A stretch of 64,000 nt of DNA from Nitrospina sp. LS_NOB (GTDB taxonomy: Bacteria > Nitrospinota > Nitrospinia > Nitrospinales > VA-1). Under the pieces are notes generated by a model, which saw only the letters and a program-made list of their open reading frames with translations, did no database searches and was not told the origin of the DNA. The first letter of the stretch is position 1. Each line of letters begins with the position of its first letter. Where the stretch lies: assembly GCA_001542995.1 (NCBI GenBank), contig LFLA01000025.1:27606-91605 (forward strand), read 5' to 3'. Positions 28,723-46,630 of the stretch are shown in pieces. The translations under genes and the position numbers were made by a program.

Positions 28723-28798
28723 GAGATTCTTCGTCGCAATGCTCATCAGAATGACAAAAGTACTTTTTCTTGTCATGCTGAGCTTGTCGAAGCATCTC
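28723..28798. repeat. imperfect palindromic element (about 32-nt arms) in the htrA-dnaJ spacer
   Basis: GAGATTCTTCGTCGCAATGCTCATCAGAATGACA ... TGTCATGCTGAGCTTGTCGAAGCATCTC. The arms are reverse complements apart from a few mismatches and indels. Confidence 0.6.
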
Positions 28799-28914
28799 GC
28801 TTTTCTGCTTTTTTGACTTATGCAAAGGCATCATTTAGAAGAGGGTGGTGAACTCTACCGGGTGCAGAGTATTTTAAGCGTCGATGGAATTTGGAAATAA
28901 ATCGCATGAAAAGA

Positions 28915-30003: not shown

Positions 30004-30116
30004 GAGTCGTTATTTTCCAGTAAGAACCACTAGGCGTGGAGCCAGCCAGCAATCGCTTTATTTGCCAGCAAAGTGATAGCTCGGTTTGATGAGTCCTTGC
30101 CCAGTTGCCTCCCCTG

Positions 30117-30722
30117 CTAAGGGGTTTTTAAATGGGCCACTTTGACTTTGGCGGCCTTGATCAACTTTTCCTTAAAAACATAACCCGGCTCCAGCTCTTC
30201 AACAATCATATTATCCTTTTCCGGATCGGTGGTGTCTTCCGTCATGATAACTTCGTCTGTTTCTGGATTGAATTTTCGGTTCTGAGTGTCGATTTTTTCC
30301 ACTCCGTTGTTCTTCAGTTCCCGGGCGTATTGTTTGGCAACCAGTTCCACACCTTGCTGAAGCGCATCCTTGTTTGAGTCGGTGGTTTGAATGGCCCGGT
30401 TCAAATTGTCAAGAATCGGGATCAAGCGTGCGAACAGGTTGGCCTTGAACTGATCCAGGCGAATGTCGTTGTCTTTTTCCAGGCGCTTACGAAAGTCATC
30501 ATTTTCCCCGGATTTTTCTTTGTAGGCAGCAATGTATTCGCGAAGGCGTTTGTCTTTTTCTTCTGCCTCCTGCTTGAGTTGTTCCACATAGGTGGGCAAG
30601 CGTTCGTCAATGTTCGCGCTCGCTTCACCATTGGTTTCTTCGTCAATCAGGGAAGATCTTCGGTCAACAATATTAATGACGGGTTCGTCTTTGGCTTTTG
30701 CAGGTTGATTTTTTTTGGCCAT
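30117..30722 (-). CDS. grpE: nucleotide exchange factor GrpE
   Basis: Coiled-coil N-terminus and GrpE C-terminal beta domain (EELEPGYVFKEKLIKAAKVKV). I take the start at ATG 30722 (MAKKNQ...). Confidence 0.9.
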   Translation of the reverse strand: MAKKNQPAKAKDEPVINIVDRRSSLIDEETNGEASANIDERLPTYVEQLKQEAEEKDKRLREYIAAYKEKSGENDDFRKRLEKDNDIRLDQFKANLFARLIPILDNLNRAIQTTDSNKDALQQGVELVAKQYARELKNNGVEKIDTQNRKFNPETDEVIMTEDTTDPEKDNMIVEELEPGYVFKEKLIKAAKVKVAHLKTP

Positions 30723-30793
30723 GGAGTTGTTCGTGTTTGTTGGGAAATAGATTCGTGCCCCCGAAGAACTCGGGGGCACGCGATTGGGTACTA

Positions 30794-32707
30794 TTATTTT
30801 TTCCCGACATCCTCAAACTCGGCATCGACAACGTCATCGTCCGACTTGCTTTCGCTGTCAGCGTCTGCACCCGCGTCACCCTCGGGGGGTGTTTCGCCGT
30901 CTTGCTGTTCCTGGGATTGGGAATACATAGATTGAGCCAGTTTGTGGGCCACCTCATTGACTTTTTCCAGCTGCTCTTTCATAGCCGGTACTTCGCCTTC
31001 AAGGTGTTTCTTGGCTTCTTCTATAGCTTCTTCAGCTTCTTTGATATCTTCCTCTTTGAGCTTTTCTTTATTTTCCTTAATGGTTTTTTCTGTGCTGTAA
31101 ATGACGGAATCAAGCTGGTTTTTTACGTCAATTTTCTCCCGTCTTTCCTTATCCACTTCTGCATTGGTTTCAGCATCTTTCACCATTTGCTCGATATCGC
31201 TTTCGCTCAAACCGGTTGAGTCGGTTATGGTGATTTTTTGTTCCTTGCCGGTACCCTTATCTTTGGCGCCTACATGTAGAATGCCATTGGCATCAATGTC
31301 AAAGGTCACTTCAATTTGCGGCATGCCCCGGGGTGCAGGTGGAATTCCGTCCAGATGGAATTTCCCGATAGACCGGTTATCCTTTGCCATTTCGCGCTCA
31401 CCCTGGATAACATTGATCTCTACCGAAGGCTGGTTGTCTGCGGCCGTCGAAAAGGTCTCCGCCTTGCGAGTGGGGATGGTTGTGTTACGTTCAATAAGTT
31501 TTGTGGTGACCCCGCCCAGTGTTTCAATTCCGAGAGAAAGCGGAGTGACATCAAGAAGAAGGATATCTTTCACGTCACCGGAAAGGACACCTGCCTGAAC
31601 CGCTGCACCCAGTGCGACCACTTCGTCCGGATTAACACCGCGATGAGGCTCCTTACCAAAAAGGGTTTTAACCAGTTCCTGTGTTTTGGGGATCCGGGTG
31701 GAGCCGCCGACCAGAATCGCTTCATGAACTTGATCTGCTTTCACTCCGGCATCCTTTAATGCCTGGACACAGGGAGTCTTTGATTTTTCTATTAGATCAT
31801 CAATCATGCTTTCAAATTTTGCTCTGGAAAGTTTGATGTTGAGATGCTTGGGGCCTCCCGCGTCCGCAGTGATGAAGGGAAGGTTGATATCGGTTTCATT
31901 GGTGGTTGAAAGTTCCATTTTGGCTTTTTCAGCCGCTTCTTTAAGCCTTTGCAGAGCCATATTGTCTTTGGAAAGATCAATGCCCTGTTCCTTTTTAAAC
32001 TCGTCTACCAGCCAGTTGATAACACGCTGATCAAGATTGTCACCACCCAGATGCGTGTCCCCGTTTGTGGCTTTAACTTCGACGACATTGTCGCCCACTT
32101 CAAGGATTGAAATATCAAAAGTACCGCCACCGAAGTCATAAACTGCAATGGTGTGGTCCTTATTCTTGTCCAGTCCATAAGCCAGCGCGGAGGCGGTGGG
32201 CTCGTTGATAATCCGCTTAACTTCCAGTCCTGCAATTTTCCCGGCATCTTTGGTTGCCTGGCGTTGGGCATCATTGAAGTATGCCGGTACAGTGATAACG
32301 GCTTCGGTGACCGGTTGGCCAAGATAGGCTTCTGCGGATTTCTTCAATTTTTGCAGAATCATGGCTGATATTTCGGGGGGAGTGTAAGACTTATCGCCGG
32401 CTTTTATCCGAACTTCCTTGTTGGATCCTTGAATGACTTCGTAAGGAACCATTTTCATTTCTTCCGACACTTCATTCAGGGCTCGGCCCATGAAACGTTT
32501 GATGGAGAAAATCGTATTTTCCGGGTTAGCGATGGCCTGTCTTTTTGCCACTTGCCCCACCAGTATCTCGCCTTCTTTCGTGAATGCGACTACGGAAGGA
32601 GTGGTCCGGCTTCCTTCCTCATTGAGGATAACTTTAGGTTCGCTTCCTTCCATAACGGCGACCACGGAGTTGGTGGTGCCCAAGTCTATGCCTACGATTT
32701 TTCCCAT
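30794..32707 (-). CDS. dnaK: chaperone DnaK (Hsp70)
   Basis: [29 protein letters not shown] and an acidic C-terminal tail. I take the start at ATG 32707 ([10 protein letters not shown]). Confidence 0.97.
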
Positions 32708-32790
32708 TAGCTTTGATCCTTTCCTTGTTTTTATAAATACCATTTACCGGGTTGAGTAAATGGGTGATATCTCTTTGCAAATCTGCTAGT

Positions 32791-33427: not shown

Positions 33428-33788
33428 CTAGCGTTTTCTAAAAGATTTTTCTACTCGCTCATACAGGGATATGGCGAAAGCCTTTCCCTGGCATTCAAAT
33501 TGGCAGTGGGTCACCAATTTTGTGGAAGGGAAATACAGGCTGTGACCTTCCAAAGCCAGAAGGGGCACTGAAAGCACGGAAGGTTCAGGTAAGAGTGCCT
33601 TGATATTCCCTCCTATCATGTTTGATCAATTCTCCTACGGCGTCTTTCTTATCCTCAATAGAGGCTTTTCCCGGTTCAAGAGAAAACATGGTTTCTGTCA
33701 ACGCGTTGACCAGGGATGAGGGGAGGGAAAGCACGATAGCACCCGTCCACTTTCCTGTGATTTGAACGCTACCTGTGACGGTATCCAT
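33428..33788 (-). pseudogene. CheX-like (chemotaxis phosphatase family) gene split by a 1-nt frame change at about 33610
   Basis: ORF 33585..33788 ends ...DKKDAVGELIKHDRREY. ORF 33428..33619 begins MIGGNIKALLPEP... Together they read GELI(N)MIGGNIKA, the CheX core motif as I remember it. The junction is ATC AAA C ATG. Confidence 0.65.
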
Positions 33789-33868
33789 CGAGGAGGCCTC
33801 AAAAGAGTCTGGTATGGGTTGGACCTCAAAGCCTAGTGTTGTAAAAACTATTTAGTTTGAAGTTGTGC

Positions 33869-34588
33869 TTACTCTGCGTTTTCGTCCAGTCCCTGCTCCA
33901 ATTCTCCCATAAACAGAGTGGTGTCTGCTTTTGCGGGAGCCTTTGCAGCCGCTTTTCGAGCGGCGATATCTTCCAGTTCATCTTTCCCTGCCTTAGTCAG
34001 GCCCCAAGGTTCTACACCATCCTTTTTAGCCTGGCGAATTGCTTCCGTCACCTTTTGCAGTTTAACATCAGCCACATCTCTTAAAGAGATAAGCGCATCT
34101 TCATGACCATCGTACTGACAAAATGCCATGGTGTAGCAATTGGTATTTGCGCGGATCATTTTCAGAGTTATATTTGCGAAATGACAATGCACTCCGATAA
34201 GGATGCAAGTCTCAATTTTATTATGCTGAATGGTCAGGTTTGGATGGCAGGGGTTGATCACCCATTCGGGATCAATTTTAGGATAAATGGGTCGGTAGTC
34301 GGGCATGGTAATTATGTTCATACCGGGGACCTCCTTGACCAGCTCCATTGCCAACTCTGCCTTATGTACGGTTTCCTTAGTCCACCCCCAAACAATCATT
34401 GGCCCGGGAAAAAGGGTCGGGTTGCGACGAGTCAATATTTCGCGCGCGGCTTTTTTGATAGCTTCGTCAGTTGGAACCTGCTCTCCTTCAACCAAGTCCA
34501 ATCCTGAATCTTTGTCAGGCGAGAAAATACCCATTGCTGCGGCAGAAGGGGGGAGTAAACCGATAGGACCTATCTCTAATTTGGGCAT
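33869..34588 (-). CDS. conserved hypothetical protein; tentatively a CO-dehydrogenase/acetyl-CoA-synthase epsilon (CdhB)-like fold, with an Ala/Lys-rich acidic tail
   Basis: 239-aa ORF with good coding character. The family assignment is from memory only and weak. No partner subunits are adjacent. Confidence 0.55.
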   Translation of the reverse strand: MPKLEIGPIGLLPPSAAAMGIFSPDKDSGLDLVEGEQVPTDEAIKKAAREILTRRNPTLFPGPMIVWGWTKETVHKAELAMELVKEVPGMNIITMPDYRPIYPKIDPEWVINPCHPNLTIQHNKIETCILIGVHCHFANITLKMIRANTNCYTMAFCQYDGHEDALISLRDVADVKLQKVTEAIRQAKKDGVEPWGLTKAGKDELEDIAARKAAAKAPAKADTTLFMGELEQGLDENAE

Positions 34589-34811
34589 CTAAACAAACCT
34601 CCAATGAATATTTTGCAAATTGAAACCGGGTTCCCCTAAACAGGGGTTACGGAATAATTTAATCGATAAAAGTCGAGAGCCTGATTTATAACGGGCAATC
34701 GCTTTTTTTTGGACTGGGCAAACCCCATTAAGAAACGGGCATGCTATTATTAAATAAGGGGTTTGTCAATGATATTCATGTCCAGTTAAAACGGGAAGGA
34801 CAAAGATTTAT

Positions 34812-36314
34812 TTAGGGCCTAAGCGGAAGTTGAGATATTTCATCAACTTGCAGCCCTGTTGTTTGGTGGATGAGGTGAGTCACACTCGCGTCCATCATCT
34901 CCATCAATGGTCCGGGATACAATCCAATACACAATACGAGGATAGCCAATGGAATCAGCGTAGCCAATTCCCGAATTGCTAAATCTGGGAGCACTTTGGC
35001 GGCTTCTGTCGATGGCTCTCCCAACACCACCCTTTGGAGCATCCACAACATATATGCGGCAGCTAAAACAATACCGCCCATAGAGATAATAACCATGGCA
35101 AAGCTGACATAGGAAGTTCCTACTAAGACTAAAAATTCGCCAATGAAATTACTGGTGCCTGGTAGCCCAAAGGCGGCGACTGAAAACAAAAAGAACAATG
35201 CAACAAATCTTGGCATGGGTTTATGCAAGCCGCCGTAGTCAGAAATCGCTCGACTGTGAGTGCGGTCGTACAATTGTCCAACAGCAATAAATAAGGCTGC
35301 CGTAATAATCCCGTGATTAAACATTTGCAAGACGGCCCCCTGGATACCTTGGCTATTGAACACAAAAATTCCGAGAGTGACAAAACCCATGTGGGAAACT
35401 GAAGAATAGGCCACGAGCTTTTTAAGATCAGTCTGTGCTAAAGCCATGAGTCCACCGTAAATAATGGCTGCAATCGACAGCCATAAAATGAATGGTGCAA
35501 AATAAATGGAAGCTTCAGGGAAAAGAGGTAGGCAGACACGCAACAATCCGTAGGCTCCCATCTTGGATAATGCTCCAGCTAAAATAACACTGCCAGCAGT
35601 GGGTGATTCAGCATAAGCACCCGGCAACCAAGCATGAAAAGGAATCATGGGGACCTTAATAGCAAAGGCCAGAAAAAATGCGAGAAATAACCAGTATTGA
35701 GTAGAAGTGCTAAATGCATAATCTGATAACGTCACTAGATCAAATGTTTGTCCACCCTGAACATAGAGGCCCAATATAGCCAATAAGAGAAGAAGGCCAC
35801 CGCCAAAGCTATACAGGACAAATTTTAATCCAGCAGAGCTTCGACCCGGTCCCCCCCATACCACCATCAAAAAGTACGCACACACCATCGTAAGTTCCCA
35901 AAAGATATAGAAGAATACCAAATTTAGCGAAAGAAATACGCCGAGTGTGGCTGTCTCCAACAAGAGAATGAGGACCATAAAAACATGCAGATTTGTTTTG
36001 ATAGTGTTCCAAGAGCACAAAACGGCAATGGGAGTCAGCAAAGCAGTCAGGACGACCATGATAAGGCTGATGCCGTCAATACCCAAGGCATACTGAACCT
36101 TTAGCGTTGGCATTAATTCGAATCGTTCAACAAATTGCATATCGGCTTTTGCAAAATCGAACTGCATCCAGATGATTACCGACAAGCCAAAGGTGAGAAG
36201 GGTGCTGGCCAAGGCGACGCGATTGACCATTTCTCGGTCTCGGATACAGCATAAGGCTCCAATTCCCAAGGAGGGAAGCACAAGCAGCCAACTCAGAAGG
36301 TGATTTGAAAGCAT
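34812..36314 (-). CDS. antiporter-like subunit, NuoM/MrpD type (PF00361), last gene of the dabA-mrp operon
   Basis: 500 aa, about 14 TM helices. Proton_antipo_M features (FFYIFWELTMV, IKVPMIPFHAWLPGAYAESPTAGSVILAG). Confidence 0.9.
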   Translation of the reverse strand: MLSNHLLSWLLVLPSLGIGALCCIRDREMVNRVALASTLLTFGLSVIIWMQFDFAKADMQFVERFELMPTLKVQYALGIDGISLIMVVLTALLTPIAVLCSWNTIKTNLHVFMVLILLLETATLGVFLSLNLVFFYIFWELTMVCAYFLMVVWGGPGRSSAGLKFVLYSFGGGLLLLLAILGLYVQGGQTFDLVTLSDYAFSTSTQYWLFLAFFLAFAIKVPMIPFHAWLPGAYAESPTAGSVILAGALSKMGAYGLLRVCLPLFPEASIYFAPFILWLSIAAIIYGGLMALAQTDLKKLVAYSSVSHMGFVTLGIFVFNSQGIQGAVLQMFNHGIITAALFIAVGQLYDRTHSRAISDYGGLHKPMPRFVALFFLFSVAAFGLPGTSNFIGEFLVLVGTSYVSFAMVIISMGGIVLAAAYMLWMLQRVVLGEPSTEAAKVLPDLAIRELATLIPLAILVLCIGLYPGPLMEMMDASVTHLIHQTTGLQVDEISQLPLRP

Positions 36315-36362
36315 CGAATCAATAGACCCTTAAGTTCCATAAAAATTTCGACAATCTCGCAT

Positions 36363-38306
36363 TTAACTCAAAATATAAAGAAGGCTCATGATAAACACGA
36401 AACCAAAAATCAAAAAGAGAATGTTGTGCCCAATTAAGCGTGGTTTGGCAAAGACTAACATGTCGCTCAAAGGCATAGTCTGAAGACTGAACTTCCACAT
36501 ACTCTGTCGCATTTCTCTCGTCTCAGCCGATCGAGAGAACCGTTGGGCCAACCGGATGATGGGATTTACGATATACGTATCGTAGATTTCATCGACGTAG
36601 AATTTATTCCAAAATAGGACATACCATCGATTGCTTATCCTACTTGCTCTGGAGACCTGATGTTGAGATCGAACTTGTGTTGAGTATGCATAGACCCATC
36701 CCGCAATTGCCACACCAAGAGAAACCACAAGCCAAAAAGGAAAGCCATGCTCAACTGCACCTTCGCCCAACGTGACTCCTGGAAAGGTCAAAGCCGGAGC
36801 AAGAAAGTCGGCGAACCAACTCCAAAACAGAGTCAATAGCCCCCCAACAAAAACCGTAGCCAGAAAAAGGCCAGTTAAAATGGAGCCATTTAAAAGCTGT
36901 GGTCGAACAGATTGCGTCTCCAAACTATGCTGTCCTGAAGCGGGCCAGTACGTCTTTGGACCGTGAACAAAAAGCGAGGTGACACCTTTAAAAAGATATT
37001 GAGAAGTCACAAATACCGTGATCAAGCCAATGACTTTAAATCCGATCGTGGCAGAAATAAACCCCGTGACCCCCCACAAATATTCATACGATCCGGAAAA
37101 CAGCACTAACGGCGGGAGTAACGCCAACAACAAGGCCCCGCCATATAAGATCCCCATGTCATCAGAGACAGGGTGTTCATGGTCACCATGCCCAAGGCCC
37201 TGTTCCACTGATCGCAACGCATTGCCGGTAGATAGAAAAAAGAACGCTTTGTAGCACCCATGGGCAAGAAGATGGAAAATCGCAACTGCAAACGCGCCCA
37301 AACCACATGCCATAACCATGAACCCGATTTGACTCATTGTGGAATAGGCCAAAATCTTTTTGATGTCCGATTGAGTCAAGGAAACTAACCCAGCAAATAC
37401 CGCGGTAGTGGCACCAATAATGAAAATGACCGTCATGGCGAACGGAGAAAGAATAATCAATGGACTCAATCGCACTAACAAAAATGGACCCGCATTCACC
37501 ATGGTTGCAGCATGGATTAATGCAGACACAGGTGTGGGAGCTTCCATAGCAAACGGCAACCACACATGAAATGGAATCTGTGCGGATTTACCCATCACAC
37601 CTGTAAATAAAAGCAGTGAAATAAGTGTGACAGATCGAATATGAAGATCAAGACCCATCCACGCGAGGACATTTACTGTGTCATTAGCCATGGCTGGAGC
37701 TAGTTCCAAAATCTGAGGAATATCGAGTGTACCAAATGTCCTGAACGCAAGAATCACACCCAGACCGAATCCTAAATCAGCTACGGCATTGACCAAAAAC
37801 GCTTTGGTCGCAGCTTGTCCAGCTGACTTTCTATCTGCAGCATGAGAAATCAGCAGATAAGAACAGAGCCCCATGACCTCCCAAAAAAAATAAAGCATGA
37901 GCAGGTTGCGACTCATTACCACCATGAGCATGGAAAAAGTAAAGAGTGCAATCACCGCGAAGAATCGATTGTATTTAGGATCATCGATCATGTATCGAGA
38001 GGAGTACAGATGAACCACACCGCTGACACCAGTTACCAAAAGCAGCAGCAGCACAGTCAACTGATCGATATGCAAACCCAAGTCAATCGTTAAATTTCCA
38101 GACTCCAGCAGAGTATAAAGCGGCACATCAATCGGGCCATTTTTCAAGACCTGGACAAAAGCAAGGATCGACAATATAAAAGAGCCCGCAATTGCAGGGA
38201 TCCCTATTTTATGACTATCGCTTGGAAACCGGCTACCACCCAACGCAAGTACAACAAACGCCAATAAAGGGAGAAGCGGGATAAAGATATACACAAATTC
38301 CATCAC
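36363..38306 (-). CDS. antiporter-like subunit, NuoL/MrpA/DabB type (PF00662 + PF00361) with a long C-terminal extension
   Basis: 647 aa. The N-terminus MMEFVYIFIPLLPLLAFVVLAL is typical of NuoL/DabB. WEVMGLCSYLLI, SAQIPFHVWLPFAMEAPTPVSALIHAATMV. The C-terminal ~150 aa could form a lateral helix plus a terminal TM. Confidence 0.9.
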   Translation of the reverse strand: MMEFVYIFIPLLPLLAFVVLALGGSRFPSDSHKIGIPAIAGSFILSILAFVQVLKNGPIDVPLYTLLESGNLTIDLGLHIDQLTVLLLLLVTGVSGVVHLYSSRYMIDDPKYNRFFAVIALFTFSMLMVVMSRNLLMLYFFWEVMGLCSYLLISHAADRKSAGQAATKAFLVNAVADLGFGLGVILAFRTFGTLDIPQILELAPAMANDTVNVLAWMGLDLHIRSVTLISLLLFTGVMGKSAQIPFHVWLPFAMEAPTPVSALIHAATMVNAGPFLLVRLSPLIILSPFAMTVIFIIGATTAVFAGLVSLTQSDIKKILAYSTMSQIGFMVMACGLGAFAVAIFHLLAHGCYKAFFFLSTGNALRSVEQGLGHGDHEHPVSDDMGILYGGALLLALLPPLVLFSGSYEYLWGVTGFISATIGFKVIGLITVFVTSQYLFKGVTSLFVHGPKTYWPASGQHSLETQSVRPQLLNGSILTGLFLATVFVGGLLTLFWSWFADFLAPALTFPGVTLGEGAVEHGFPFWLVVSLGVAIAGWVYAYSTQVRSQHQVSRASRISNRWYVLFWNKFYVDEIYDTYIVNPIIRLAQRFSRSAETREMRQSMWKFSLQTMPLSDMLVFAKPRLIGHNILFLIFGFVFIMSLLYILS

Positions 38307-38331
38307 AACCCATTCACTTTAGTTAAAGAAA

Positions 38332-39804
38332 TTAAAATCCCTTCGGGATAACCGACTCAAAAATTAACCCCATAACAAGATCACTTCCCAACCCCAACGC
38401 TATAATCCAGAAAGTCAGAACACCTAAACTCATCTTTATGGGAAAGGGCGTCTCGAGAACATGAGGCTCAACTAGCGGAAGGGATTCTTCGGCCCACACA
38501 CGTTGAAACATTCGAAAGAAATACAAGGCGGTCAGCATACTCGTGACCAAAATAGCAACGACAGCAAAGTATTTCTCAGCCTCCAATGCACCGACGACCA
38601 AGTGCCATTTTCCGAAAAATCCAGCAGTCGGAGGAATGCCCACCATGGACAATGCCGAGATAACCAATGCAGCCAACACCCAGGGCATGTTTCGTCGCAA
38701 TCGCGCAAGGTCTGTCACTGTACTCGCGCCATATTGATAGCTCGCGGCTCCAGCCACGCCAAAGAGAGCGGCTTTCATCAAGGTATCCGCCAAGAGGTAA
38801 AACAGTCCTCCCGCAAATCCTGTTTCAGTACCCAGACTGAAACCCAACATAATTAACCCCATAGAGGAAACGCTAGAATACGCCAACATGCGTTTGAAAT
38901 TTTCTTGCCAAATTGCACGGTAAGCTCCAACAATCGCAGCCACAGCACCGACCCAGCCCAGCACCACCAAGATTGGGATTTGTGTGGTCACCGTGGCCAT
39001 ACCAAAAACCCAAAAGGCAATACGGACGAAAGCATATAATGGAACTTTCGTCACCACCGAGGCTAGTAAAGGAGTGCAAGAGTCCGGTGCGTAGGTATAT
39101 GCATCAGGCAACCATCCATGCAATGGGAATAATCCCATCTTAATGGACAACCCCAAGACAATGAATATCAACCCTGTTAGCACCGCCCGAGAATCGAGAA
39201 CATCCGGAAGTCGTAGCGCCATATCTGCCATGTTGAGCGTTCCGGTTTCCGCATAAAAATACCCCACACCCAACAAGTATAGGGATGCCCCGATGGTACC
39301 GAGAATCAAATAGCGATAAGCAGAAAGAAGAGAACGGCCTCCAGCCACACCGACCAGAACATAACTAGCCAGCGAGCCGATTTCTAAAAAAACAAAAAGG
39401 TTAAACAGGTCTCCGGCCAATACCATTCCGCCCAAGGCTGCAATTAACAGAAGAGAAAGAGAATAAAAGGGTATCACTCGACCGGATAATTCTTTTTCGA
39501 CCAGAGGGCCTGCATGCACAAGCGCAATAAGCGAGACGACACTAATCGCCACCATTAGGAGTCCGCTCAACCCATCGATCACCCACTCAATGCCAATAGG
39601 CGGTGCCCATCCCCCAAATTCATGAGACAGTGGACCATGCGATATAGCCTCACTCAAGCCAATGACCGATACAATGCTAAGGAAAACCAAAGCACCGAGA
39701 GCAATCGGGCGACAAAGTTTCTGATTAGTGAAACCGACAACTGGTATTACAATTGCGGCAAAAAAGGGAATGGCGAATAAAAAACCTGGTAGGCTTGAGG
39801 TCAT
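38332..39804 (-). CDS. antiporter-like subunit, MrpD/NuoN/MbhH type (PF00361)
   Basis: 490 aa. GLFPLHGWLPDAYTYAPDSCTPLLASVVTKV. Its start overlaps the mrpC-like stop (ATGA). Confidence 0.9.
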   Translation of the reverse strand: MTSSLPGFLFAIPFFAAIVIPVVGFTNQKLCRPIALGALVFLSIVSVIGLSEAISHGPLSHEFGGWAPPIGIEWVIDGLSGLLMVAISVVSLIALVHAGPLVEKELSGRVIPFYSLSLLLIAALGGMVLAGDLFNLFVFLEIGSLASYVLVGVAGGRSLLSAYRYLILGTIGASLYLLGVGYFYAETGTLNMADMALRLPDVLDSRAVLTGLIFIVLGLSIKMGLFPLHGWLPDAYTYAPDSCTPLLASVVTKVPLYAFVRIAFWVFGMATVTTQIPILVVLGWVGAVAAIVGAYRAIWQENFKRMLAYSSVSSMGLIMLGFSLGTETGFAGGLFYLLADTLMKAALFGVAGAASYQYGASTVTDLARLRRNMPWVLAALVISALSMVGIPPTAGFFGKWHLVVGALEAEKYFAVVAILVTSMLTALYFFRMFQRVWAEESLPLVEPHVLETPFPIKMSLGVLTFWIIALGLGSDLVMGLIFESVIPKGF

Positions 39805-40169
39805 TTCATCTTTTCAAGTATCTGATCTTCTTCCAATGTGTTGTACTCTCTGTACAAAGCAATAACCATGGCAAGCGAAACGCCAAGAGTGCTAACTCCA
39901 ACTACAATCGCCGTGAGCATCAACACGTGGGGAAGGGGGTTCGCATAGGCTTCGGGAGCCAATGCCGTCACAGAAGGCAAAATAATGGGAATCGTACTGT
40001 CCTCTTTCACTGCCAGGGTGATAAAGAATAACATGATACTGGTTTGCATGATGTACATACCGATGAGTTTTTTGACCAGGTTGAGACACACCACCATGAT
40101 ATATATGCCCAAAAGAAATAGGATGATAAACGCGACAAAGTGGGGACGATAGAGAAGTATGTCAGCCAT
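39801..40169 (-). CDS. Mrp subunit C-like (NuoK family)
   Basis: 122 aa, 3 TM helices. NPLPHVLMLTAIVVGVSTLGVSLAM is typical of MnhC/NuoK. Confidence 0.85.
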   Translation of the reverse strand: MADILLYRPHFVAFIILFLLGIYIMVVCLNLVKKLIGMYIMQTSIMLFFITLAVKEDSTIPIILPSVTALAPEAYANPLPHVLMLTAIVVGVSTLGVSLAMVIALYREYNTLEEDQILEKMK

Positions 40170-40170
40170 A

Positions 40171-40614
40171 CTATTTTTCCTCTCCTTCTCCGCGTTCTCT
40201 CAAACTATAATAAATTGAAACGGCTGTAGCAGCGACCGTAATCGTAACGCCTATTTCAATTCCCAAAATCCCCCAGTGCCGCCTGGCAGAAGCCTCCATA
40301 CCTGGGATAGGCAGTTTTCCGTAATTTAAAAACTCCCCTCCAAGGATAAGTGGAAGTAGACCGATTCCCGCAAAAAGTAAAATGCCGATCCCGCCTAAAA
40401 TAATCGCTCGCCTTTCAAGCACGCTCAGAGAACCTTGAATGCCGAAGGCAATGATTGGCAGAATGACACTAGCCGCAAACAACGTTCCTGCCTGGAACCC
40501 GCCACCTGGACTATCGTGTCCATGAATAAGTACATACAATGCAAAGAGTTGAATAACGGGTGTAATAACTCTGGTCAGGGTGTGAACTATTACACTGTCA
40601 AGTGGCTGAATCAT
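40171..40614 (-). CDS. Mrp subunit B-like (MnhB domain, MbhF-like)
   Basis: 147 aa. HGHDSPGGGFQAG motif of the MnhB family. Confidence 0.8.
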   Translation of the reverse strand: MIQPLDSVIVHTLTRVITPVIQLFALYVLIHGHDSPGGGFQAGTLFAASVILPIIAFGIQGSLSVLERRAIILGGIGILLFAGIGLLPLILGGEFLNYGKLPIPGMEASARRHWGILGIEIGVTITVAATAVSIYYSLRERGEGEEK

Positions 40615-41137
40615 CTCTTCTCCTTAATAACATCCAACAGGCTATCCCTGCGGTAAATATGACAGTGGTCTCGCCCAGGGTGTCGAAGCCTCGATAGTCG
40701 GCCAACACCGCCGTCACCACATTGGGGGTATCTGTTTCCTCCAGACTCTTTCTTAAATAGTGGGAAGAAACATGTTTACTAGGTAGCGATTTAGGGTCCC
40801 CGACCACCGGTAGATCCACGGACCCAAATAATAGTAGAAAACCCAGAATCCCCAGGCCCCCCAATGCCATTATCCGTACCGGCAACTGTTTGCGAACTTC
40901 TTCTTGATGAGAGGTTAGATACAAGGCCACCAAAAAAAACAAGGTGGACAAGCCAGCACCAACAACAGCTTCGGTAAAGGCCACATCAACAGCTCCGAGA
41001 CCAGCCCAGAGAAGTGCCAGAAAAAAACTGTAAGCAGCCAAGGTAAGCACTCCACTAAAGAGGTCGCGAACAAAGACAGCACCCAGTGCCGTCACAACCG
41101 CCAAAAGAAGAAGAAGATAGTCGTCAAATAGCGTCAT
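40598..41137 (-). CDS. DUF4040 (MbhD-like) fused to an MbhE/MnhB-N-like segment
   Basis: DVAFTEAVVGAGLSTLFF (DUF4040-like) and NVVTAVLADYRGFDTLGETTVIF (MnhB-type motif). ATG 41137 overlaps the mrpG-like stop (ATGA). Confidence 0.8.
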   Translation of the reverse strand: MTLFDDYLLLLLAVVTALGAVFVRDLFSGVLTLAAYSFFLALLWAGLGAVDVAFTEAVVGAGLSTLFFLVALYLTSHQEEVRKQLPVRIMALGGLGILGFLLLFGSVDLPVVGDPKSLPSKHVSSHYLRKSLEETDTPNVVTAVLADYRGFDTLGETTVIFTAGIACWMLLRRRDDSAT

Positions 41138-41433
41138 TTTTTCTCCTTGACCCAAGGGCGCACACCATTTCGGAGAGCTGCTCTAAGGATCACATGGGAA
41201 ATGACTGGATTAAGATGCCAAAGGGCAAGAAGAATCAACATTATTTTCACATCAGCAAGGGTAAGCCCTTGATAAAAAGCCACGCCTGTTAAGACAAAAA
41301 AAGTGCCAAGGGTATCGGTAATGCTTAACGCATGAGATCTGGAAAAGACATCAGGCAAACGAACGATGCCAATAGCCGCAACCGTCAGAAAAAAGAGGCC
41401 AATACAAATTAATAGGGTATCGACTGCTAACAT
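41134..41433 (-). CDS. Mrp subunit G-like
   Basis: 99 aa. GIVRLPDVFSRSHALSITDTLG matches the PhaG/MnhG motif. Confidence 0.85.
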   Translation of the reverse strand: MLAVDTLLICIGLFFLTVAAIGIVRLPDVFSRSHALSITDTLGTFFVLTGVAFYQGLTLADVKIMLILLALWHLNPVISHVILRAALRNGVRPWVKEKK

Positions 41434-41699
41434 TCCCGAGTCCCTTTTTGTTCTAGATATTTTCCTACTGCCAGTCCACCAATAATGTTGAGCATGGCAT
41501 AGCCCAACGCGATATCAACAAACATTTCTATTCGTCCATACAGACTTCCCAAAATGGTCAACAAAAGAATGGCCTTGGTTGAAATCCCATTTAGGCCCAA
41601 AATCCGGTCGTAGACTGTAGGACCCTGAAACACCCGATACATATAAACAAGGATAAGTATGGTGAGAATGAGAAAGAAAAAATGGTACGACGTAAACAT
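41427..41699 (-). CDS. Mrp subunit F-like
   Basis: 90 aa, 3 TM helices. FQGPTVYDRILGLN is typical of MrpF/PhaF. Confidence 0.85.
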   Translation of the reverse strand: MFTSYHFFFLILTILILVYMYRVFQGPTVYDRILGLNGISTKAILLLTILGSLYGRIEMFVDIALGYAMLNIIGGLAVGKYLEQKGTREC

Positions 41700-42181
41700 C
41701 AGGTTTGCCCCCTCGAATGGAAAGCCTCGGCAATTTTTCGTTCCATGTCTCTCGACTCCAGCCCGCTGGATGATTTGTCATCCAGAGCATGAATCACCAA
41801 TTCACTGGAGGAGACCTCAATCGTGACAGTCCCCGGGGTTAACGTAATAGAATTTCCCAACAATACAACCGCTGGATTACTTCCAAGATTAGTAGGATAT
41901 TGGATGAGTCGTGGATTGATAGGAAGCTTTGGATCAAGAATAATTTTCGTAATATTTAGACTGCTCTTGACAATTTCCAAGAATAACCAAGGCCAATAAA
42001 GGATAAGTCGTACGTGAGGCAATGGTGGTTCATCCAAATGTTGAGGTTCGGTGTTCACCCAAGCAATCAAAGCAGCACCGAGAAATCCAATTGAGAGATG
42101 AAACGCGTCCAGCTTGCCGGATAACAAGACCCAAAGCCCGAAAAGTCCGATAGTTTTTAGAATGAGTGTTCTTGGCGACAT
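41699..42181 (-). CDS. Mrp subunit E-like
   Basis: 160 aa. GNSITLTPGTVTIEV...LVIHAL is typical of MnhE. Its stop overlaps the mrpF-like start (TGATG). Confidence 0.85.
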   Translation of the reverse strand: MSPRTLILKTIGLFGLWVLLSGKLDAFHLSIGFLGAALIAWVNTEPQHLDEPPLPHVRLILYWPWLFLEIVKSSLNITKIILDPKLPINPRLIQYPTNLGSNPAVVLLGNSITLTPGTVTIEVSSSELVIHALDDKSSSGLESRDMERKIAEAFHSRGQT

Positions 42182-42190
42182 AACTCTGCT

Positions 42191-45100
42191 TTACCCCAGC
42201 CGTATGGATTCCCACGAAGCATTCGAATTGTACCGATGAAACTCAAACGTATTGGGATCCAAGGCCACAAGATTGAGCCATTGATTATGAAACAACTGTT
42301 GAAGGATCGAGTGTTTTTGAATGACAGATGAGATTACACTCGGTGTCTGTTCGATGATAGCTAAGAGTCGCATAGGTTCATGATAATGAGTTTCTCCGTT
42401 ATTAACTGTTTGTAAGGGGAATCCCATTTGCAAATCACTTTGGCTTCCCAGCATCATCCCAACACCCCCGACGACATTGTGCAACACCTTGCTGCCACTT
42501 CCATACACCCACGGATCAACCGTAGAAAAATAATAGCCTGTGCTAATCCACTGGCCGACAATTAATGGCGCAGTCATGATATTTTCGAGGATGGCTCCCT
42601 GGGGATCATCAGCAGAATCATAAGAATGCAAGAAAACCCGACCGCCTAAATCTAACCCTTTGGTCAGTTTTCGTTTTCCAATGAGAAATGCGCCATTGCC
42701 CGCTAATCCCCATTCCGGTCGAGTATTCGCCCAATCGCAACTGCGTTCGTCTACATGAGCAAAAGCCTGCTCTGGAGAAATTTCAGTCGGAGCACTGGGA
42801 ATGCGATGGCATCGCTCAAGAGCCTGCTTCGCACCAGCTTCTTCGAGATTCTTTTTCAACGCCTGAAAATCTTCTTTATGCGAATCAGGCAGTTCCTCTA
42901 GATCGTAAAACTCGACCCGATCAGTCGTCGTGTTATGTTTCCCCGGAAGAAACCAGGTGTCATCGGGAATCGGCAACCCTATTTCCTTGAGAATGCGACG
43001 AACTTCAGGTTCATTCGCCATCGCGGCAAAAACTCGCGCATTTGCATCGCCCGGTGCTCCCCCGCAAGCCCCGCAATCCAACGCCCCATAGTAGGGATTG
43101 TTGTCGGTCTCACTCCCATGGCCACAGAGGCACACCAAACGAGCAAAATTTTTGGTGAACCCCATAGCACGCAAACCATTTTCGATAAATGTCGCCCGTT
43201 CCGAAAGAGAAAACCCCCGAGAAAGCCTGTCAGGAATCCCTTCCGCATTCACTTCTCCGATCCCGGGATTTTGAGGATTAGATGGCGTGGAAATTGAGAT
43301 CTGGGTTGGAACCCTATGCGTCAACCAACTCTGGATAGTAGAGGTCATTCCACAAAATCTTTTTTGGAACAAGGTCTTGCCCACCAACCCCAGACTAAAA
43401 AAGAATCCCAATACATCAATCATCATCATCGACCCAATAGGATGATGTTTCAGGTCGTGAAAAAGATGGTGCCCCAGTTGGTACCAGCGAGTACCAGAAG
43501 AATATTTTTCTAACGCCGCTCCCTCTCCCGACCGAGGTGATTCCGTTACCGCATGGTTAGGAGTCAATAACACCGGACATAAAGAGTAACGTTGATTACT
43601 ATCAAAAGCTTGATGGCTAATGGGAATGCCAAAAAACCCTGCAAACCCAAACGTTTCATAGGAACCTTGGGCTTCAATATGGCGACGAAATGATTCGGAA
43701 CGTACGTCGATACAAAAGGCTAGTTGTGCATGGGGACGAGTTTCCAATTCTGGTACCGTTCCGCGATGCGCTGAAATATTTCTCAGCATCTTCTCTCGAA
43801 AGGAATCTTCGTATGCCTCAATCCATACCCTTCCATGTTGATCAGCAGGAAAGTGATCTAACCATTGCAACAACATCTGGGCATTAGTAAGCGAGAGATC
43901 TTGAACTTCTCTTGGAGATAACTCAAGAAACTGTGCCAAATGGAATAATCGCCAAGCATATCGACATTTCATCTGTTTGGTTTGATTCCCAGATTGCACT
44001 CCATGCCAACTTTGTTGGTGGTATTCTTTGGGTCGATCATTCCAATATGCAGTCAGGGTAGAAACGGTCCCATCAATTCCCCATTCTTGCTGGCACTTAA
44101 TGTTGGTCAACTCCATTTCATAGAATAAACGCACGGCCAGATATTGTGTGGTGTCAATGGGATGTTTGTGTTGCGCATGGTAGGTTGGGTGTTCCCCAAG
44201 CCACCGTATGTATCGCGTCCAGCCTGGTAATAATGATAGTTGCCTTGAGAGATAATCTTCCCATTGTTCTTGGGGAATTTCGAGTTGGTGCAAGCTGGAA
44301 CGGATTGCGTCCTCTGGAGTTGCAGGAAGGCTATGAACTTTTTGGGCGAAATCTGTAATCCCGAGAAGCTGCCCCGAAAAATCTTTCTGCGCCAGGTTCC
44401 GCCATACTTGGTAGAAACCTACTTCTCGGCCAGGCATTTCCCAGCAGGCTAATCCTTCATCGAGAAACGCCGCCACCCATTTTATGAGTTGATTATTGAC
44501 TTGGTCGACCACCCCACCCTCAGTCAAACCATCAACCCAATCGCTGATGGTCTGTTGAGGCGACAAGGAAATGGGTGCTGAAGTTTGCGAATGCGAATCC
44601 CCAGATATTTGAGATGAAGCATGAAAATCAGATAGCCCGAAGGTGGCTAACACACTCTTCCATAAATTCGTCAGGTAGGCCTCTTCTGGATACACCGGAC
44701 ACTGTTCACATTCTTTGATGGTTTGCTCAATAATTTGTTTCTGGGATTCCTCGGAAAGATCTTGCCGAAACTGTTTTGTAGCTCCACCACCGCTTAACTC
44801 CCATTCCAAGAGGGATAATGGCAATTCCTCGAAGCCAAAAAGTATGTGTAATTGCCAAACATCTTTTGGGGTAACCTTTCGACTTCCAACTTCAATAAAA
44901 ACCTGACCATCGGGGCGAGGCCCAACCCTGGAAAAAGCGCGCTTAAAACTTTCTTTGGTAATACGGCCATTTCGGTAAAATTGACGATACTCCTCATTCG
45001 CAAGATACCCATTTCCACCAAGGAGGGCCTTGCCTTTTCGAACAGCCTGATCAAACGGCAGATATTCCAATCCATGAATGGGATTCTGCGCGATCATGGT

Positions 45101-45205
45101 CCGCATGGGCCAAAACGGCGCAATTGGCTCACTGGCGTTCAATACAATTTGCCGAACCCGATCACGATCTTCTGAGGAAAGGGGCTTCACTGAAATAGTA
45201 CTCAT
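42191..45205 (-). CDS. dabA: DUF2309/DabA-family protein (putative energy-coupled, beta-carbonic-anhydrase-like CO2-hydrating subunit)
   Basis: 1004 aa. Family-typical N-terminus (PIAPFWPMRTMIAQNPIHGL). Zn-ligand-type motifs FCIDVRSE (Cys498/Asp500 by my count) and CLCGHGS...LDCGACGG (His696/Cys711). C-terminal YDSADDPQG...APLIVGQWI...GSGSKVLHNVVG. Confidence 0.9.
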   Translation of the reverse strand: MSTISVKPLSSEDRDRVRQIVLNASEPIAPFWPMRTMIAQNPIHGLEYLPFDQAVRKGKALLGGNGYLANEEYRQFYRNGRITKESFKRAFSRVGPRPDGQVFIEVGSRKVTPKDVWQLHILFGFEELPLSLLEWELSGGGATKQFRQDLSEESQKQIIEQTIKECEQCPVYPEEAYLTNLWKSVLATFGLSDFHASSQISGDSHSQTSAPISLSPQQTISDWVDGLTEGGVVDQVNNQLIKWVAAFLDEGLACWEMPGREVGFYQVWRNLAQKDFSGQLLGITDFAQKVHSLPATPEDAIRSSLHQLEIPQEQWEDYLSRQLSLLPGWTRYIRWLGEHPTYHAQHKHPIDTTQYLAVRLFYEMELTNIKCQQEWGIDGTVSTLTAYWNDRPKEYHQQSWHGVQSGNQTKQMKCRYAWRLFHLAQFLELSPREVQDLSLTNAQMLLQWLDHFPADQHGRVWIEAYEDSFREKMLRNISAHRGTVPELETRPHAQLAFCIDVRSESFRRHIEAQGSYETFGFAGFFGIPISHQAFDSNQRYSLCPVLLTPNHAVTESPRSGEGAALEKYSSGTRWYQLGHHLFHDLKHHPIGSMMMIDVLGFFFSLGLVGKTLFQKRFCGMTSTIQSWLTHRVPTQISISTPSNPQNPGIGEVNAEGIPDRLSRGFSLSERATFIENGLRAMGFTKNFARLVCLCGHGSETDNNPYYGALDCGACGGAPGDANARVFAAMANEPEVRRILKEIGLPIPDDTWFLPGKHNTTTDRVEFYDLEELPDSHKEDFQALKKNLEEAGAKQALERCHRIPSAPTEISPEQAFAHVDERSCDWANTRPEWGLAGNGAFLIGKRKLTKGLDLGGRVFLHSYDSADDPQGAILENIMTAPLIVGQWISTGYYFSTVDPWVYGSGSKVLHNVVGGVGMMLGSQSDLQMGFPLQTVNNGETHYHEPMRLLAIIEQTPSVISSVIQKHSILQQLFHNQWLNLVALDPNTFEFHRYNSNASWESIRLG

Positions 45206-45395
45206 ATAGAAGGATTTACCTCTTGCATAGAGATCTCCAGCGTACTCCCCATAAATGAGAACGCTTCACTCAGTTCGCTTTTATTTTCCGTATTTTTATT
45301 TTCCAAATAATTAGCTCGAGTATTCCGTAAGTAATTAAGTATATTTTCGGCTTCATCGAGGATGTTGATATATGGGCATTATGATTTGCTTCAAG

Positions 45396-45689
45396 TCATT
45401 TATTAATTAGCTGGATCAGATCATGTACTTGTCGATGTTTCTCAATACCATGTCTCAGGGGCTTGCGGCTGAACACTTTGTACACGTTTCTCCTTCCTTC
45501 GCGGATGTGGTCCAAATACCGGTCCGCCTCCAGCTCAACGATAATGCGCTGAACTGCACGTTCCGTGATTCCAACTTCCAATGCAATGTCTCGAATGCGT
45601 TCAGACGGATTTTTGGCCAGACACAACAGAACGTGTCCATGATTCGTCAAAAAAGTCCACGACGGAGTATTTATTTTTCTTGCGCTCAT
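45396..45689 (-). CDS. small winged-helix transcriptional regulator (ArsR/MarR-like HTH)
   Basis: 97 aa. TNHGHVLLCLAKNPSERIRDIALEVGITERAVQRIIVELEADRYL..REGRRNVYKV. It lies 190 nt upstream of dabA on the same strand. Confidence 0.75.
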   Translation of the reverse strand: MSARKINTPSWTFLTNHGHVLLCLAKNPSERIRDIALEVGITERAVQRIIVELEADRYLDHIREGRRNVYKVFSRKPLRHGIEKHRQVHDLIQLINK

Positions 45690-45988
45690 CCTAGATCCTA
45701 TTTGGAAAAGACAATACTTCCAAAGCTTAACTTATGCCATGATTAATACAAGAAATACAATACACGAAATAGATTTCATATGTCAATAAATTATTAAGGG
45801 GTTTGCCCATGAGCATACTTATTCTGATTCGAAATATAGAGGAAATGGACACGGTACTCGAAGCTGCAAACAAGTGAGTCGGAATCTGGACAAGAGCTTA
45901 TTGAGCCGAGACGATTCTTTGCTCACTAAAGAAAGTTATTGCTAGTCGAGCCCAGAGCAACGCAGACTTAAAGGTACGCTATAGTAGC

Positions 45989-46630
45989 TTAAAGCCCCTT
46001 ATTTTCTGCCCACTTGAAGGGGGCTTCCTGCCAGGAGCGCAGTGTTTCAATATCATTTTGAGGGAGATTTTGGGTGGATTGGGCTACCTGCAGCAGTTCG
46101 GAAAAAATTAGGATAGAATGGATTTGGCAGGAGATGCTTTTAAACTTTTCTGTGGCCTCGGGGAACCCATAGCTGAAAATACTGCAGCAATGTTCGACAA
46201 TGCCCCCGGCTTCCCGGACGGCTGCCACGGCGTTGATTGCACTCGCCCCTGTTGAAACCAGATCCTCAATGACTAATACCCGCTGATTTTGTTTTAGAAT
46301 CCCTTCAATTTTGTTGCCCATGCCATGGGATTTGGCCGTAGACCTGACATAAACCAAGGGAATCTGAAGCAGGTCAGCCAGAGTGGTGGCATGGGGGATC
46401 CCGGCGGTCGCGGTGCCAGCTATGACTTCTACTTCAGCCGCACATTTTTTTAACAGGTCTTGAAAGCCTTTTGCAATCAGGGCACGGTGTTCGGCGTTTC
46501 CCAGAAGCAGGCGGTTGTCATTATAGATGGGCATTTTATAACCGGAAGCCCAAGTGAAAGGCTCGCGGGCATTGATTTGGATTGCGCCGATTTCTAACGC
46601 CACCTGGGCAATATTCTCTGCGCTGGTCAT
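45989..46630 (-). CDS. pyrE: orotate phosphoribosyltransferase
   Basis: PRPP-binding motif RVLVIEDLVSTGAS. Type I PRTase fold. Its start overlaps the lptD stop. Confidence 0.9.
   Translation of the reverse strand: MTSAENIAQVALEIGAIQINAREPFTWASGYKMPIYNDNRLLLGNAEHRALIAKGFQDLLKKCAAEVEVIAGTATAGIPHATTLADLLQIPLVYVRSTAKSHGMGNKIEGILKQNQRVLVIEDLVSTGASAINAVAAVREAGGIVEHCCSIFSYGFPEATEKFKSISCQIHSILIFSELLQVAQSTQNLPQNDIETLRSWQEAPFKWAENKGL

Follow-up and report, generated by a model that had tools for sequence, protein, structure and literature searches.

The DNA analysed here (the window) comprises 64,000 nucleotides from Nitrospina sp. LS_NOB, a Nitrospinaceae organism (assembly GCA_001542995.1, contig LFLA01000025.1, positions 27,606 to 91,605), and carries on its minus strand ten co-directional genes, running from 45205 to 34812, that join dabA, coding for a carbonic-anhydrase-like protein of the DUF2309 family, to an Mrp-type module of seven genes and to genes for two complex I-type antiporter-like subunits. 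A first-pass annotation, made from the letters and a list of open reading frames (ORFs), had read this row as a candidate energy-coupled inorganic-carbon pump led by DabA. All ten reading frames are reproduced in the ORF list on the minus strand and at the positions given there, and the cluster probably encodes a large, apparently undescribed form of the DAB pump on an Mrp/complex I-type arm. Together with a small regulatory gene in front, it is composed as follows:

45396 to 45689, minus strand: small winged-helix protein (97 aa), candidate DAB-associated transcription factor
42191 to 45205, minus strand: DabA (1004 aa), PF10070, beta-carbonic-anhydrase-like catalytic subunit
41699 to 42181, minus strand: MrpE/MbhA-type subunit (160 aa), PF01899
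41427 to 41699, minus strand: MrpF-type subunit (90 aa), PF04066 and NCBIfam MrpF models
41134 to 41433, minus strand: MrpG-type subunit (99 aa), PF03334, with TIGR01300 above cut-off
40598 to 41137, minus strand: fused MbhD and MbhE (MbhDE), equal to the MrpA C-terminal domain (179 aa), PF13244 and PF20501, with NF009159 above cut-off
40171 to 40614, minus strand: MrpB-type subunit (147 aa), PF04039
39801 to 40169, minus strand: MrpC/NuoK-type subunit (122 aa), PF00420 and NCBIfam MrpC models
38332 to 39804, minus strand: MrpD/MbhH-type antiporter-like subunit (490 aa), PF00361, best models MrpD-type
36363 to 38306, minus strand: NuoL-type antiporter-like subunit (647 aa), PF00662 and PF00361, with lateral helix and terminal transmembrane (TM) helix
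34812 to 36314, minus strand: NuoM-type antiporter-like subunit (500 aa), PF00361 and TIGR01972

From dabA to nuoM the junctions measure +9, -1, -7, -4, -17, +1, -4, +25 and +48 nt, as listed in the first-pass annotation. The 9-nt spacer between dabA and mrpE was read directly in the sequence, and the -4 junction in front of the MbhDE gene requires translation to begin at ATG 41137, in an ATGA overlap preceded by GGAGA, and not at TTG 41155, where the ORF list places the start. A promoter and terminator scan of 33500 to 46200 is uninformative on transcription units, as the sites found do not exceed the frequency in shuffled sequence and no convincing internal terminator was detected. The cluster is flanked upstream by genes for a phosphoribosyltransferase, LptD and a Mur ligase and downstream by a PF02552 gene, PilZ and DnaK; an independent 2.68-Mb assembly (L090; homologous loci are referred to by such numbers) has the identical gene arrangement and identical flanks. 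Profile searches with Pfam and NCBIfam, which had been proposed as a check, confirmed every family assignment. The same searches matched no NuoB/C/D/H/I-like and no hydrogenase family among the ten proteins or the flanking ORFs, so that the cluster has no redox module, as had been claimed; accordingly, neither the NuoH plus NuoB, C, D and I set of complex I/NDH-1 is found among these proteins and ORFs, nor are MbhM and the NiFe-hydrogenase-like subunits of MBH/MBS found in the cluster.

DabA scores 888 bits against PF10070 over profile positions 3-747 of 747 and aligns to the solved DabA2 of Halothiobacillus neapolitanus (9rd0_A) with E=7e-117. Its residues C498, D500, H696 and C711 align to C351, D353, H524 and C539 of DabA2, which are experimentally required (bioRxiv 10.1101/476713), and all four zinc-site residues are unchanged throughout two alignments, with 17 and with 60 diverse DabAs. 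A conserved motif block, DWANTRPEWGL, occupies positions 824-834, within which RPEWGL at 829-834 includes the conserved Leu that is said to prevent stable bicarbonate binding (bioRxiv 10.64898/2026.05.01.722082). The sole hydrophobic stretch of the protein, 589-614, lies inside predicted helices 562-628, which represent the 'elbow', the two-helix element that inserts into DabB in both DAB structures. An AlphaFold2 model of DabA (predicted local distance difference test (pLDDT) 89; predicted template-modelling score 0.90) places helices at 562-587, 589-612 and 614-628; a Foldseek search with this model against a PDB library up to 2026-04-08, evidently without 9rd0, gave no match and hence no confirmation at the level of the fold. 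With the Pfam score, the zinc site, RPEWGL and the elbow all retained, the assignment to DabA/DUF2309 is sound, and DabA looks catalytically competent. Those DabA homologues that carry a name belong to Nitrospinaceae or Nitrospina.

All Mrp-linked DabAs are without the cytosolic arm of ~80 aa that follows the elbow in DAB1-type DabAs. In the comparison of this region (~630-660 of the window DabA) with L003 (13601-16846), L024, L047, L079 and L026, the last, where dabA is followed by nuoL, nuoM and the contig end, retains the cytosolic arm and looks intermediate.

On the membrane side, all Mrp families from A to G are represented by profile matches, with MrpA split into the NuoL-type subunit and MbhD/E. 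The NuoL-type subunit reaches 472 bits with TIGR01974 (cut-off 407.5; profile positions 3-628 of 630) and, among solved structures, matches NuoL/ND5 of complex I with 250-276 bits over nearly its full length, DabB2 with 134 bits and MrpA with ~125 bits, while the NuoM-type subunit scores 586 bits with TIGR01972 (cut-off 263.8) and 364-390 bits with ND4/NuoM. The closest solved relatives of the MrpD-type subunit are MbsH of MBS (6u8y_H), MrpD (7qru_D) and MbhH, and the MrpE-type subunit finds its best solved relative in MBS chain 6u8y_A, then in MrpE chains. MbhDE matches the D and E chains of MBH/MBS and MrpA residues ~600-800, and the MrpB-type subunit matches solved MrpB/MbhF chains.

With Escherichia coli NuoL, NuoM and NuoN as the reference for transport-residue positions, the NuoL-type subunit keeps E144, D178, K229, H254, D303, H334, H338 and K342, the NuoM-type subunit keeps E144, K234, K265, H322, H348 and E407, and the MrpD-type subunit keeps the equivalents of NuoN E133, K217, K247 and K395. 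The first-pass annotation had counted three antiporter-like subunits, and this count is upheld by their PF00361 domains; since all three keep the charged residues, the arm gives the impression of a functional chain made up of three pump modules and an Mrp small-subunit module. At the position of K399 in TM12 of NuoL, the window protein and most Mrp-linked NuoL-type proteins have Glu, and two have Arg; Glu is the NuoM-like state and may hint at a distally located charged partner.

In the canonical DabBs of nine loci the TM5 Glu (E144) is absent and its place is taken by Q, H, L, S, G or F, which agrees with a comment in the DAB2 paper on DabB being devoid of ion-pair motifs. The NuoL-type subunit of the window differs from such a DabB-type partner (~520-565 aa, short lateral helix, no TM5 Glu), which pairs with DabA as a 1:1 heterodimer or, with DabC added, as a heterotrimer, in having 647 aa and in keeping E144 and K229. 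It is nevertheless the nearest to DabB in the cluster, with 42% identity over 365 aa to a Nitrospinota DabB, and three PF00361 genes share the co-directional cluster with dabA, the kind of co-location used as a criterion for DAB systems (PMC13147460). An MrpA N-terminal domain is missing from the seven-gene Mrp block, and only the NuoL-type subunit can supply it. The NuoL-type subunit would thus bridge DabA and the Mrp module, as it is both the sole DabB-like protein and the sole source of this domain.

At 50% identity the DabA family falls into 4,201 clusters. A DabA alignment was used to scan one genome for each GTDB species, and the window proteins were mapped on the best 80 of at least 580 loci; further loci were added by look-ups, and the Mrp-linked count includes the window. 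In this set dabA occurs with the mrp-nuoL-nuoM genes in 27 loci, the incomplete ones being cut by contig ends, so that the linkage recurs in related genomes in the neighbourhood survey that the first-pass annotation had called for. Judged by record titles, which are not checked phylogenies, the hosts are Nitrospina/Nitrospinaceae and many Nitrospirales/Nitrospira, joined by metagenome-assembled genomes (MAGs) labelled Arenicellaceae (DabA identity 49%), Acidobacteria (51%) and Terriglobia (47%); the titles span the four phyla Nitrospinota, Nitrospirota, Acidobacteriota and Gammaproteobacteria. In a neighbour-joining tree the Mrp-linked DabAs and L026 form one clade (bootstrap 0.895), next to a clade of canonical DabB-DabC-like-DabA-P-II cassettes of Nitrospira/Nitrospinota, the sister relation of the two being weakly supported. 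Likewise, the Mrp-linked NuoL-type subunits form one clade (0.96) apart from the DabBs.

The recurring cluster often has neighbours that are linked to the uptake of inorganic carbon. A SulP gene co-directional with dabA, often accompanied by an MpsC gene in divergent orientation, lies directly upstream of it in at least 12 loci, among them those of Arenicellaceae, Acidobacteria and Terriglobia; no SulP gene adjoins the cluster in the window or in N. watsonii. In L088 genes for P-II and MpsC follow nuoM, and a canonical DAB cassette is located after the cluster in N. watsonii (L001) and inside it in L003. A functional link to inorganic-carbon uptake is therefore well supported by comparative genomics. 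This part of the proposed energy-coupled carbon pump stands; that there is a single complex, that ions drive it and that DabA docks on it is what we infer.

The lateral helix of complex I clamps adjacent pump subunits. In the Mrp-linked NuoL-type proteins, length classes of ~645, 672, 699 and 721-726 aa correspond to 0, 1, 2 and 3 tandem amphipathic units of 27 aa (ARWLWRIVDIRxIDxFIHxIATYSVx), placed between the conserved FWNKxYxDEIYD and the last TM helix (the 3' end of the gene is at 36363-36600 in the window); the number of PF00361 genes stays constant at three across these classes. The window protein has no repeat, which gives a lateral helix of about the E. coli length. Two alleles of the Mrp block can be distinguished in Nitrospinaceae: the window-type allele goes with 0 repeats (window, L086, L087, L090) and the other with 1-3 repeats (L001, L002, L085, L088, L089). 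Because repeat number co-varies with the Mrp allele, this pattern suggests that the C-terminus of the NuoL-type subunit touches the Mrp block. A 26-aa insertion in the lateral helix has been tied to an extra NuoM in the '2M' complex I of Nitrospira, according to the passage of PMC9040806 in which that work is cited. An AlphaFold2 model of the NuoL-type subunit, built on a shallow alignment (67-100% identity), reached pLDDT 56 and was not used for a fold search.

The reading that we hold with slightly better than even confidence is that the ten genes encode one membrane complex, an enlarged, ion-gradient-driven and possibly Na+-coupled vectorial carbonic anhydrase of the DAB type. The arm would be ordered as in complex I and Mrp, from MrpE/F/G/B, MbhDE and MrpC through the MrpD-type and NuoM-type subunits to the NuoL-type subunit, with DabA placed on the cytoplasmic face of the latter in the manner of a DabA-DabB pair. 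The NuoM-type subunit would fill the position of the half-size DabC in DAB1, the structure of which shows DabC aligned with the NuoM helices next to NuoL (bioRxiv 10.64898/2026.05.01.722082). Downhill flow of H+ via the three antiporter-like subunits and of Na+ via the Mrp small-subunit module would drive conformational and proton-transfer steps, whereby CO2 hydration at the buried zinc site would be made one-way and diffusing CO2 would be trapped as cytoplasmic bicarbonate. The Mrp module would permit the complex to harness the large Na+ gradient of seawater, or several ions per CO2, at pH ~8, where CO2 is scarce and the proton gradient weak; on our own reasoning the Na+ gradient would exceed the proton gradient at the pH of seawater. 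The observation that Nitrospirales hosts of the mnh plus nuoL/M cluster are mostly marine or saline (PMC12342949, PMC7784846) fits such a drive. That the Mrp block needs the NuoL-type subunit, itself DabB-like, favours one complex over two, as does the co-variation of repeat number with the Mrp allele.

Several observations weigh against this assembly. The residues that form contacts in DAB1, DabB H328/R331 and DabA E704, are not conserved here, and the binding of DabA to these subunits is inferred. The membrane arm taken alone resembles the group-3 Mrp systems with three antiporter-like subunits, and one such system works as a Na+/H+ antiporter (PMC5703873). The core of the NuoL-type subunit is 44% identical to E. 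coli NuoL versus 45% to a Nitrospinota DabB, and a neighbour-joining bootstrap with E. coli as the only complex I reference did not separate a DabB from a NuoL origin. Furthermore, an HtrA/DegP-type gene on the same strand (~500-511 aa, Trypsin_2 and two PDZ domains) separates dabA from mrpE in L010 (13073-14572), L021 (13216-14751) and L087 (5776-7308), and an opposite-strand dabB-dabC-dabA-P-II cassette does so in L003; in view of these insertions co-transcription is not universal. Finally, the window and L085 are 95% identical in DabA, 90% in the winged-helix protein and 87% in the PF02552 protein, whereas their seven proteins from MrpE to MrpD (38332-42181 in the window) are 44-61% identical, as distant as the Acidobacteria versions; between the window and L086 these seven are 89-94% and DabA 88% identical. 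These comparisons show the window cluster to be recombinant: in Nitrospinaceae the Mrp block exists as two old alleles that recombine next to dabA, and as the histories of the Mrp block and dabA differ, the modules are exchangeable. Both alleles are always linked to a DabA.

With respect to transcription, the proposal of one translationally coupled operon holds for the sub-lineage of the window (window, L086 and L090), to which the tight dabA-mrpE junction is limited; elsewhere this junction shows a gap of tens to ~500 nt or the inserted genes. The genes from mrpE to nuoM are tightly packed in all loci. A shorter relative of the HtrA gene is present in the window 6 kb downstream (27405-28553). 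A putative joint loss of dabA and mrp in two small (2.4-2.6 Mb) Nitrospirales genomes, L017 (9944-13334) and L023 (9944-13027), in which a dabA of this clade is fragmented and mrp genes are absent downstream, was rejected as a firm case, as these are long-read MAGs in which frameshifts may be errors; L021 has a split dabA yet kept mrp.

Among the alternatives the best surviving one, which we consider unlikely, assumes two cooperating machines. DabA with the NuoL-type and NuoM-type subunits would then constitute a DAB1-like CO2 pump, and MrpEFG-MbhDE-BCD would be, or complete, a Na+/H+ antiporter, removing from the cell the Na+ that enters through a neighbouring SulP/BicA-type Na+/bicarbonate symporter, clustering being the consequence of one shared task. 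The independent exchange of the seven-gene Mrp block, insertions that fall exactly at the dabA-mrpE junction, the direct succession of dabA, nuoL and nuoM in L026 and the SulP gene upstream in most loci speak for such a division, and a model in which Mrp supports BicA has been proposed for Ca. N. alkalitolerans and Aphanothece (PMC7784846). On the other hand, the Mrp block would be without an MrpA N-terminal domain unless the NuoL-type subunit provides it, the co-variation of NuoL-type repeat number with the Mrp allele suggests contact, the contig of L026 ends inside nuoM, so that mrp genes could follow, and the window and N. watsonii have the cluster with no SulP gene beside it.

Less probable still is that the cluster encodes an ordinary Mrp Na+/H+ antiporter for salt or alkali tolerance, with DabA separate or auxiliary, for instance providing protons or bicarbonate for pH homeostasis. 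Every Mrp subunit family is indeed present, and in print the genes have been read as an Mnh/Mrp antiporter accompanied by additional mnh-like nuoL/M genes and as enriched among lineages from marine and haloalkaline habitats (PMC3578206, PMC7784846, PMC12342949). However, the linkage to dabA holds down to 42% DabA identity, over four phyla by record title and with congruent clades; DabA is reported to be active only with a PF00361 partner (bioRxiv 10.1101/476713), and the cluster offers no other; and neighbours specific for inorganic carbon (MpsC, P-II, SulP and DAB cassettes) accompany it.

Two further alternatives are very improbable. Were the direction reversed, protons imported by the arm would let DabA dehydrate imported bicarbonate to CO2 for the carboxylases of the reductive tricarboxylic acid (rTCA) cycle, or an exergonic DabA reaction would drive ion export, as proposed by COGNAT for YbcC operons (PMC5700660); OGOR and POR do use CO2, L086 has a PF02552/POR-type cluster 3 kb downstream and SulP would import bicarbonate with Na+, but CO2 is the substrate of characterised DABs, which build up bicarbonate (bioRxiv 10.1101/476713; PMC13147460), the RPEWGL Leu held to disfavour bicarbonate binding is conserved (bioRxiv 10.64898/2026.05.01.722082), near-equilibrium CO2 hydration would by our estimate yield little energy, and dehydration is already performed by ordinary carbonic anhydrase, which most Nitrospinota encode (PMC10839748). 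Equally doubtful is docking of the arm on a redox module encoded elsewhere, as in NDH-1MS, with electron transfer instead of an ion gradient driving DabA, for although the NuoL-type and NuoM-type subunits are true complex I types, Nitrospina has a second, scattered complex I (PMC3578206), L087 has nuoA-D ~5 kb downstream and L088 has a NuoF-like gene after MpsC, the cluster is without a NuoH/MbhM-type protein, on which all known peripheral arms dock, the nuo genes found nearby are not retained as neighbours across loci and NUO-2 of Nitrospina has its own nuoL, M and N (PMC3578206).

Concerning regulation, the winged-helix gene reported 190 nt upstream of dabA on the same strand is present, its 97-aa product matching HTH_24 just at threshold (22.0 bits; threshold 21.9), and it is kept upstream of dabA in L001, L085 and L090. 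Homologues adjoin the canonical dabB-dabA operons of Actinobacteria and, in N. watsonii, precede the second dabB (L001 21091-21384, L038, L040, L060, L070, L077), a distribution that suggests an unnamed DAB-specific regulator family. An alignment of the spacer between this gene and dabA from the window, L085 and L001 revealed no shared operator.

The PF02552 (CO_dh/CdhB-like) gene is located just downstream of the cluster at 33869-34588 on the minus strand. In L086 (14381-18043) its homologue heads a cluster for a POR/OGOR-type 2-oxoacid:ferredoxin oxidoreductase (rTCA carboxylases), and two Aquificota loci (L079 2807-3514, L083 3943-4656) have homologues at a distance of 6-7 kb upstream of dabB-dabA. 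The window also contains a dnaK-grpE-dnaJ-htrA chaperone/protease row (27405-32743) and, within 6320-13840, a glycogen set (branching enzyme, GH57, 4-alpha-glucanotransferase and phosphorylase), both of which look ordinary; by ORF size 6320-11370 had been guessed to be nuoL/M/N, which is ruled out by its glycogen-metabolism genes.

Parts of this cluster have been seen before. A 'putative eight subunit Mnh-type' salt-tolerance antiporter, which may be the present cluster, was described in N. gracilis (Lücker et al., 2013; PMC3578206), and a group-3 Mrp cluster in which mrpD is followed by two NuoM/NuoL-like genes, with bicA nearby, was likewise read as an antiporter (Daebeler et al., 2020; PMC7784846), as it was for marine lineage IV in a 2025 comparison of Nitrospirales (PMC12342949). 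DabA is not mentioned in the nitrifier papers on mrp plus nuoL/M, nor in those on Nitrospinota or N. marina (PMC3578206, PMC7784846, PMC12342949, PMC10839748, PMC8115632). The DAB/DAC papers define the system as DabA with one PF00361 subunit and, in some cases, DabC, and a term search in these papers and in surveys found no Mrp-linked form (bioRxiv 10.1101/476713; PMC13144422; bioRxiv 10.64898/2026.05.01.722082; PMC10880623; PMC13147460). COGNAT reported in 2017 that ybcC upstream of nuoL is often accompanied by NuoM and SulP genes and proposed multi-subunit ion-translocating complexes, their function being not known (PMC5700660). The first-pass annotation had suggested an uncharacterised architecture, which is correct insofar as the literature searched makes no connection between DabA and Mrp, whereas the mrp plus nuoL/M cluster itself was already noted. 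Its 'new class' of pump is too strong an expression, as known modules are combined, mrp with nuoL/M had been noted (PMC7784846, PMC12342949) and DabA operons with several PF00361 genes were flagged in 2017 (PMC5700660).

If the single ion-driven complex exists, it would provide Nitrospinota with a route for CO2 acquisition at pH ~8. In the ocean water column nitrite is oxidised mainly by Nitrospinota, which also account for a sizeable share of dark-ocean inorganic-carbon fixation (PMC10839748). Genome papers on the phylum list only carbonic anhydrase and SulP/BicA-type transporters for CO2, this cluster being filed under salt tolerance. The first DAB structures date from 2026, and the coupling mechanism has been left open by them. 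A natural DabA joined to a full pump chain with intact charged residues and no redox chemistry would, if real, offer a clean system for energy transfer between antiporter-like modules and a catalytic site, a central question for complex I, Mrp and MBH. With respect to evolution a link between DabC and NuoM is suggested, with respect to engineering a Na+-driven CO2 pump is possible, and with respect to annotation these 'NuoL', 'NuoM' and 'Mnh' genes of nitrifiers would be neither complex I nor simply a salt pump. More tentatively, and with less than even confidence, the observations can be joined into a wider proposal, in which Nitrospinota and marine Nitrospirales, the nitrite oxidisers that dominate in the sea, might take up CO2 via a ten-subunit, redox-free, complex I-like machine; the Mrp Na+ module and three proton-pump subunits would drive DabA as a vectorial carbonic anhydrase powered by Na+-motive force, the number of 27-aa repeats would set the count of clamped membrane modules, and DAB1 (DabABC) would represent reduced relatives of such an arm.

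Compared with known systems, the closest are DAB/DAC/MpsAB (DAB2 of H. neapolitanus, 9rd0; DAB1 of T. albus), which have in common with the present cluster the PF10070 DabA with its zinc ligands, RPEWGL and elbow, a NuoL-related PF00361 gene in the cluster, P-II, MpsC and SulP neighbours and the absence of a redox module. They possess, however, one or two membrane proteins versus nine predicted here; canonical DabBs are without the TM5 Glu/TM7 Lys pair, which the NuoL-type subunit keeps along with a full lateral helix and terminal TM helix; and DAB1 combines a half-size DabC with a DabA that has the ~80-aa arm, where the present cluster has a full NuoM-type subunit and no arm.

Also uncharacterised, and likewise combining DabA with several PF00361 genes, is the NuoM-DabA-NuoL-NuoM-NuoM operon (COGNAT 'clade C', PMC5700660), which differs in its separate deep DabA clade, its four PF00361 genes and the lack of Mrp small subunits. 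It encodes a DabA of ~1100 aa, a DabB-sized NuoL of 520 aa and a middle M-type protein that lost the key Glu and Lys, and occurs in methanotrophs, Nitrosomonas/Nitrosospira ammonia oxidisers, Accumulibacter, Magnetococcales, myxobacteria (Polyangium) and Roseovarius (L034, L039, L042-L046, L049, L053, L058, L063, L064, L067, L071).

With the Mrp (CPA3) antiporters of 'group 3', which have two MrpD genes (Aphanothece mrpCD1D2EFGAB), the cluster shares the seven families, three antiporter-like subunits and marine or saline hosts, but here MrpA is split into a complex I-type NuoL and MbhD/E, a true NuoM type serves as third large subunit and DabA, a soluble catalytic subunit, is genetically attached. 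The E-F-G-(D,E)-B-C-D order is that of mbhA-H in the MBH/MBS/MBX complexes of Thermococcales (6cfw, 6u8y), which provide the best solved relatives of the small subunits and of the MrpD-type subunit and follow the same principle of an Mrp module with a cytoplasmic enzyme; the present cluster is distinguished by having no MbhM/NuoH, NiFe or Fe-S subunits, no redox reaction and two extra complex I-type pump subunits. Finally, the cyanobacterial NDH-1MS/MS' complexes, with CupA/CupB on NdhD3/F3 and NdhD4/F4, have a CupA/B unrelated to DabA, a full quinone and ferredoxin module, thought to make them redox-driven, and no Mrp small subunits, but obey the same proposed logic of a vectorial carbonic anhydrase mounted on distal antiporter-like subunits.

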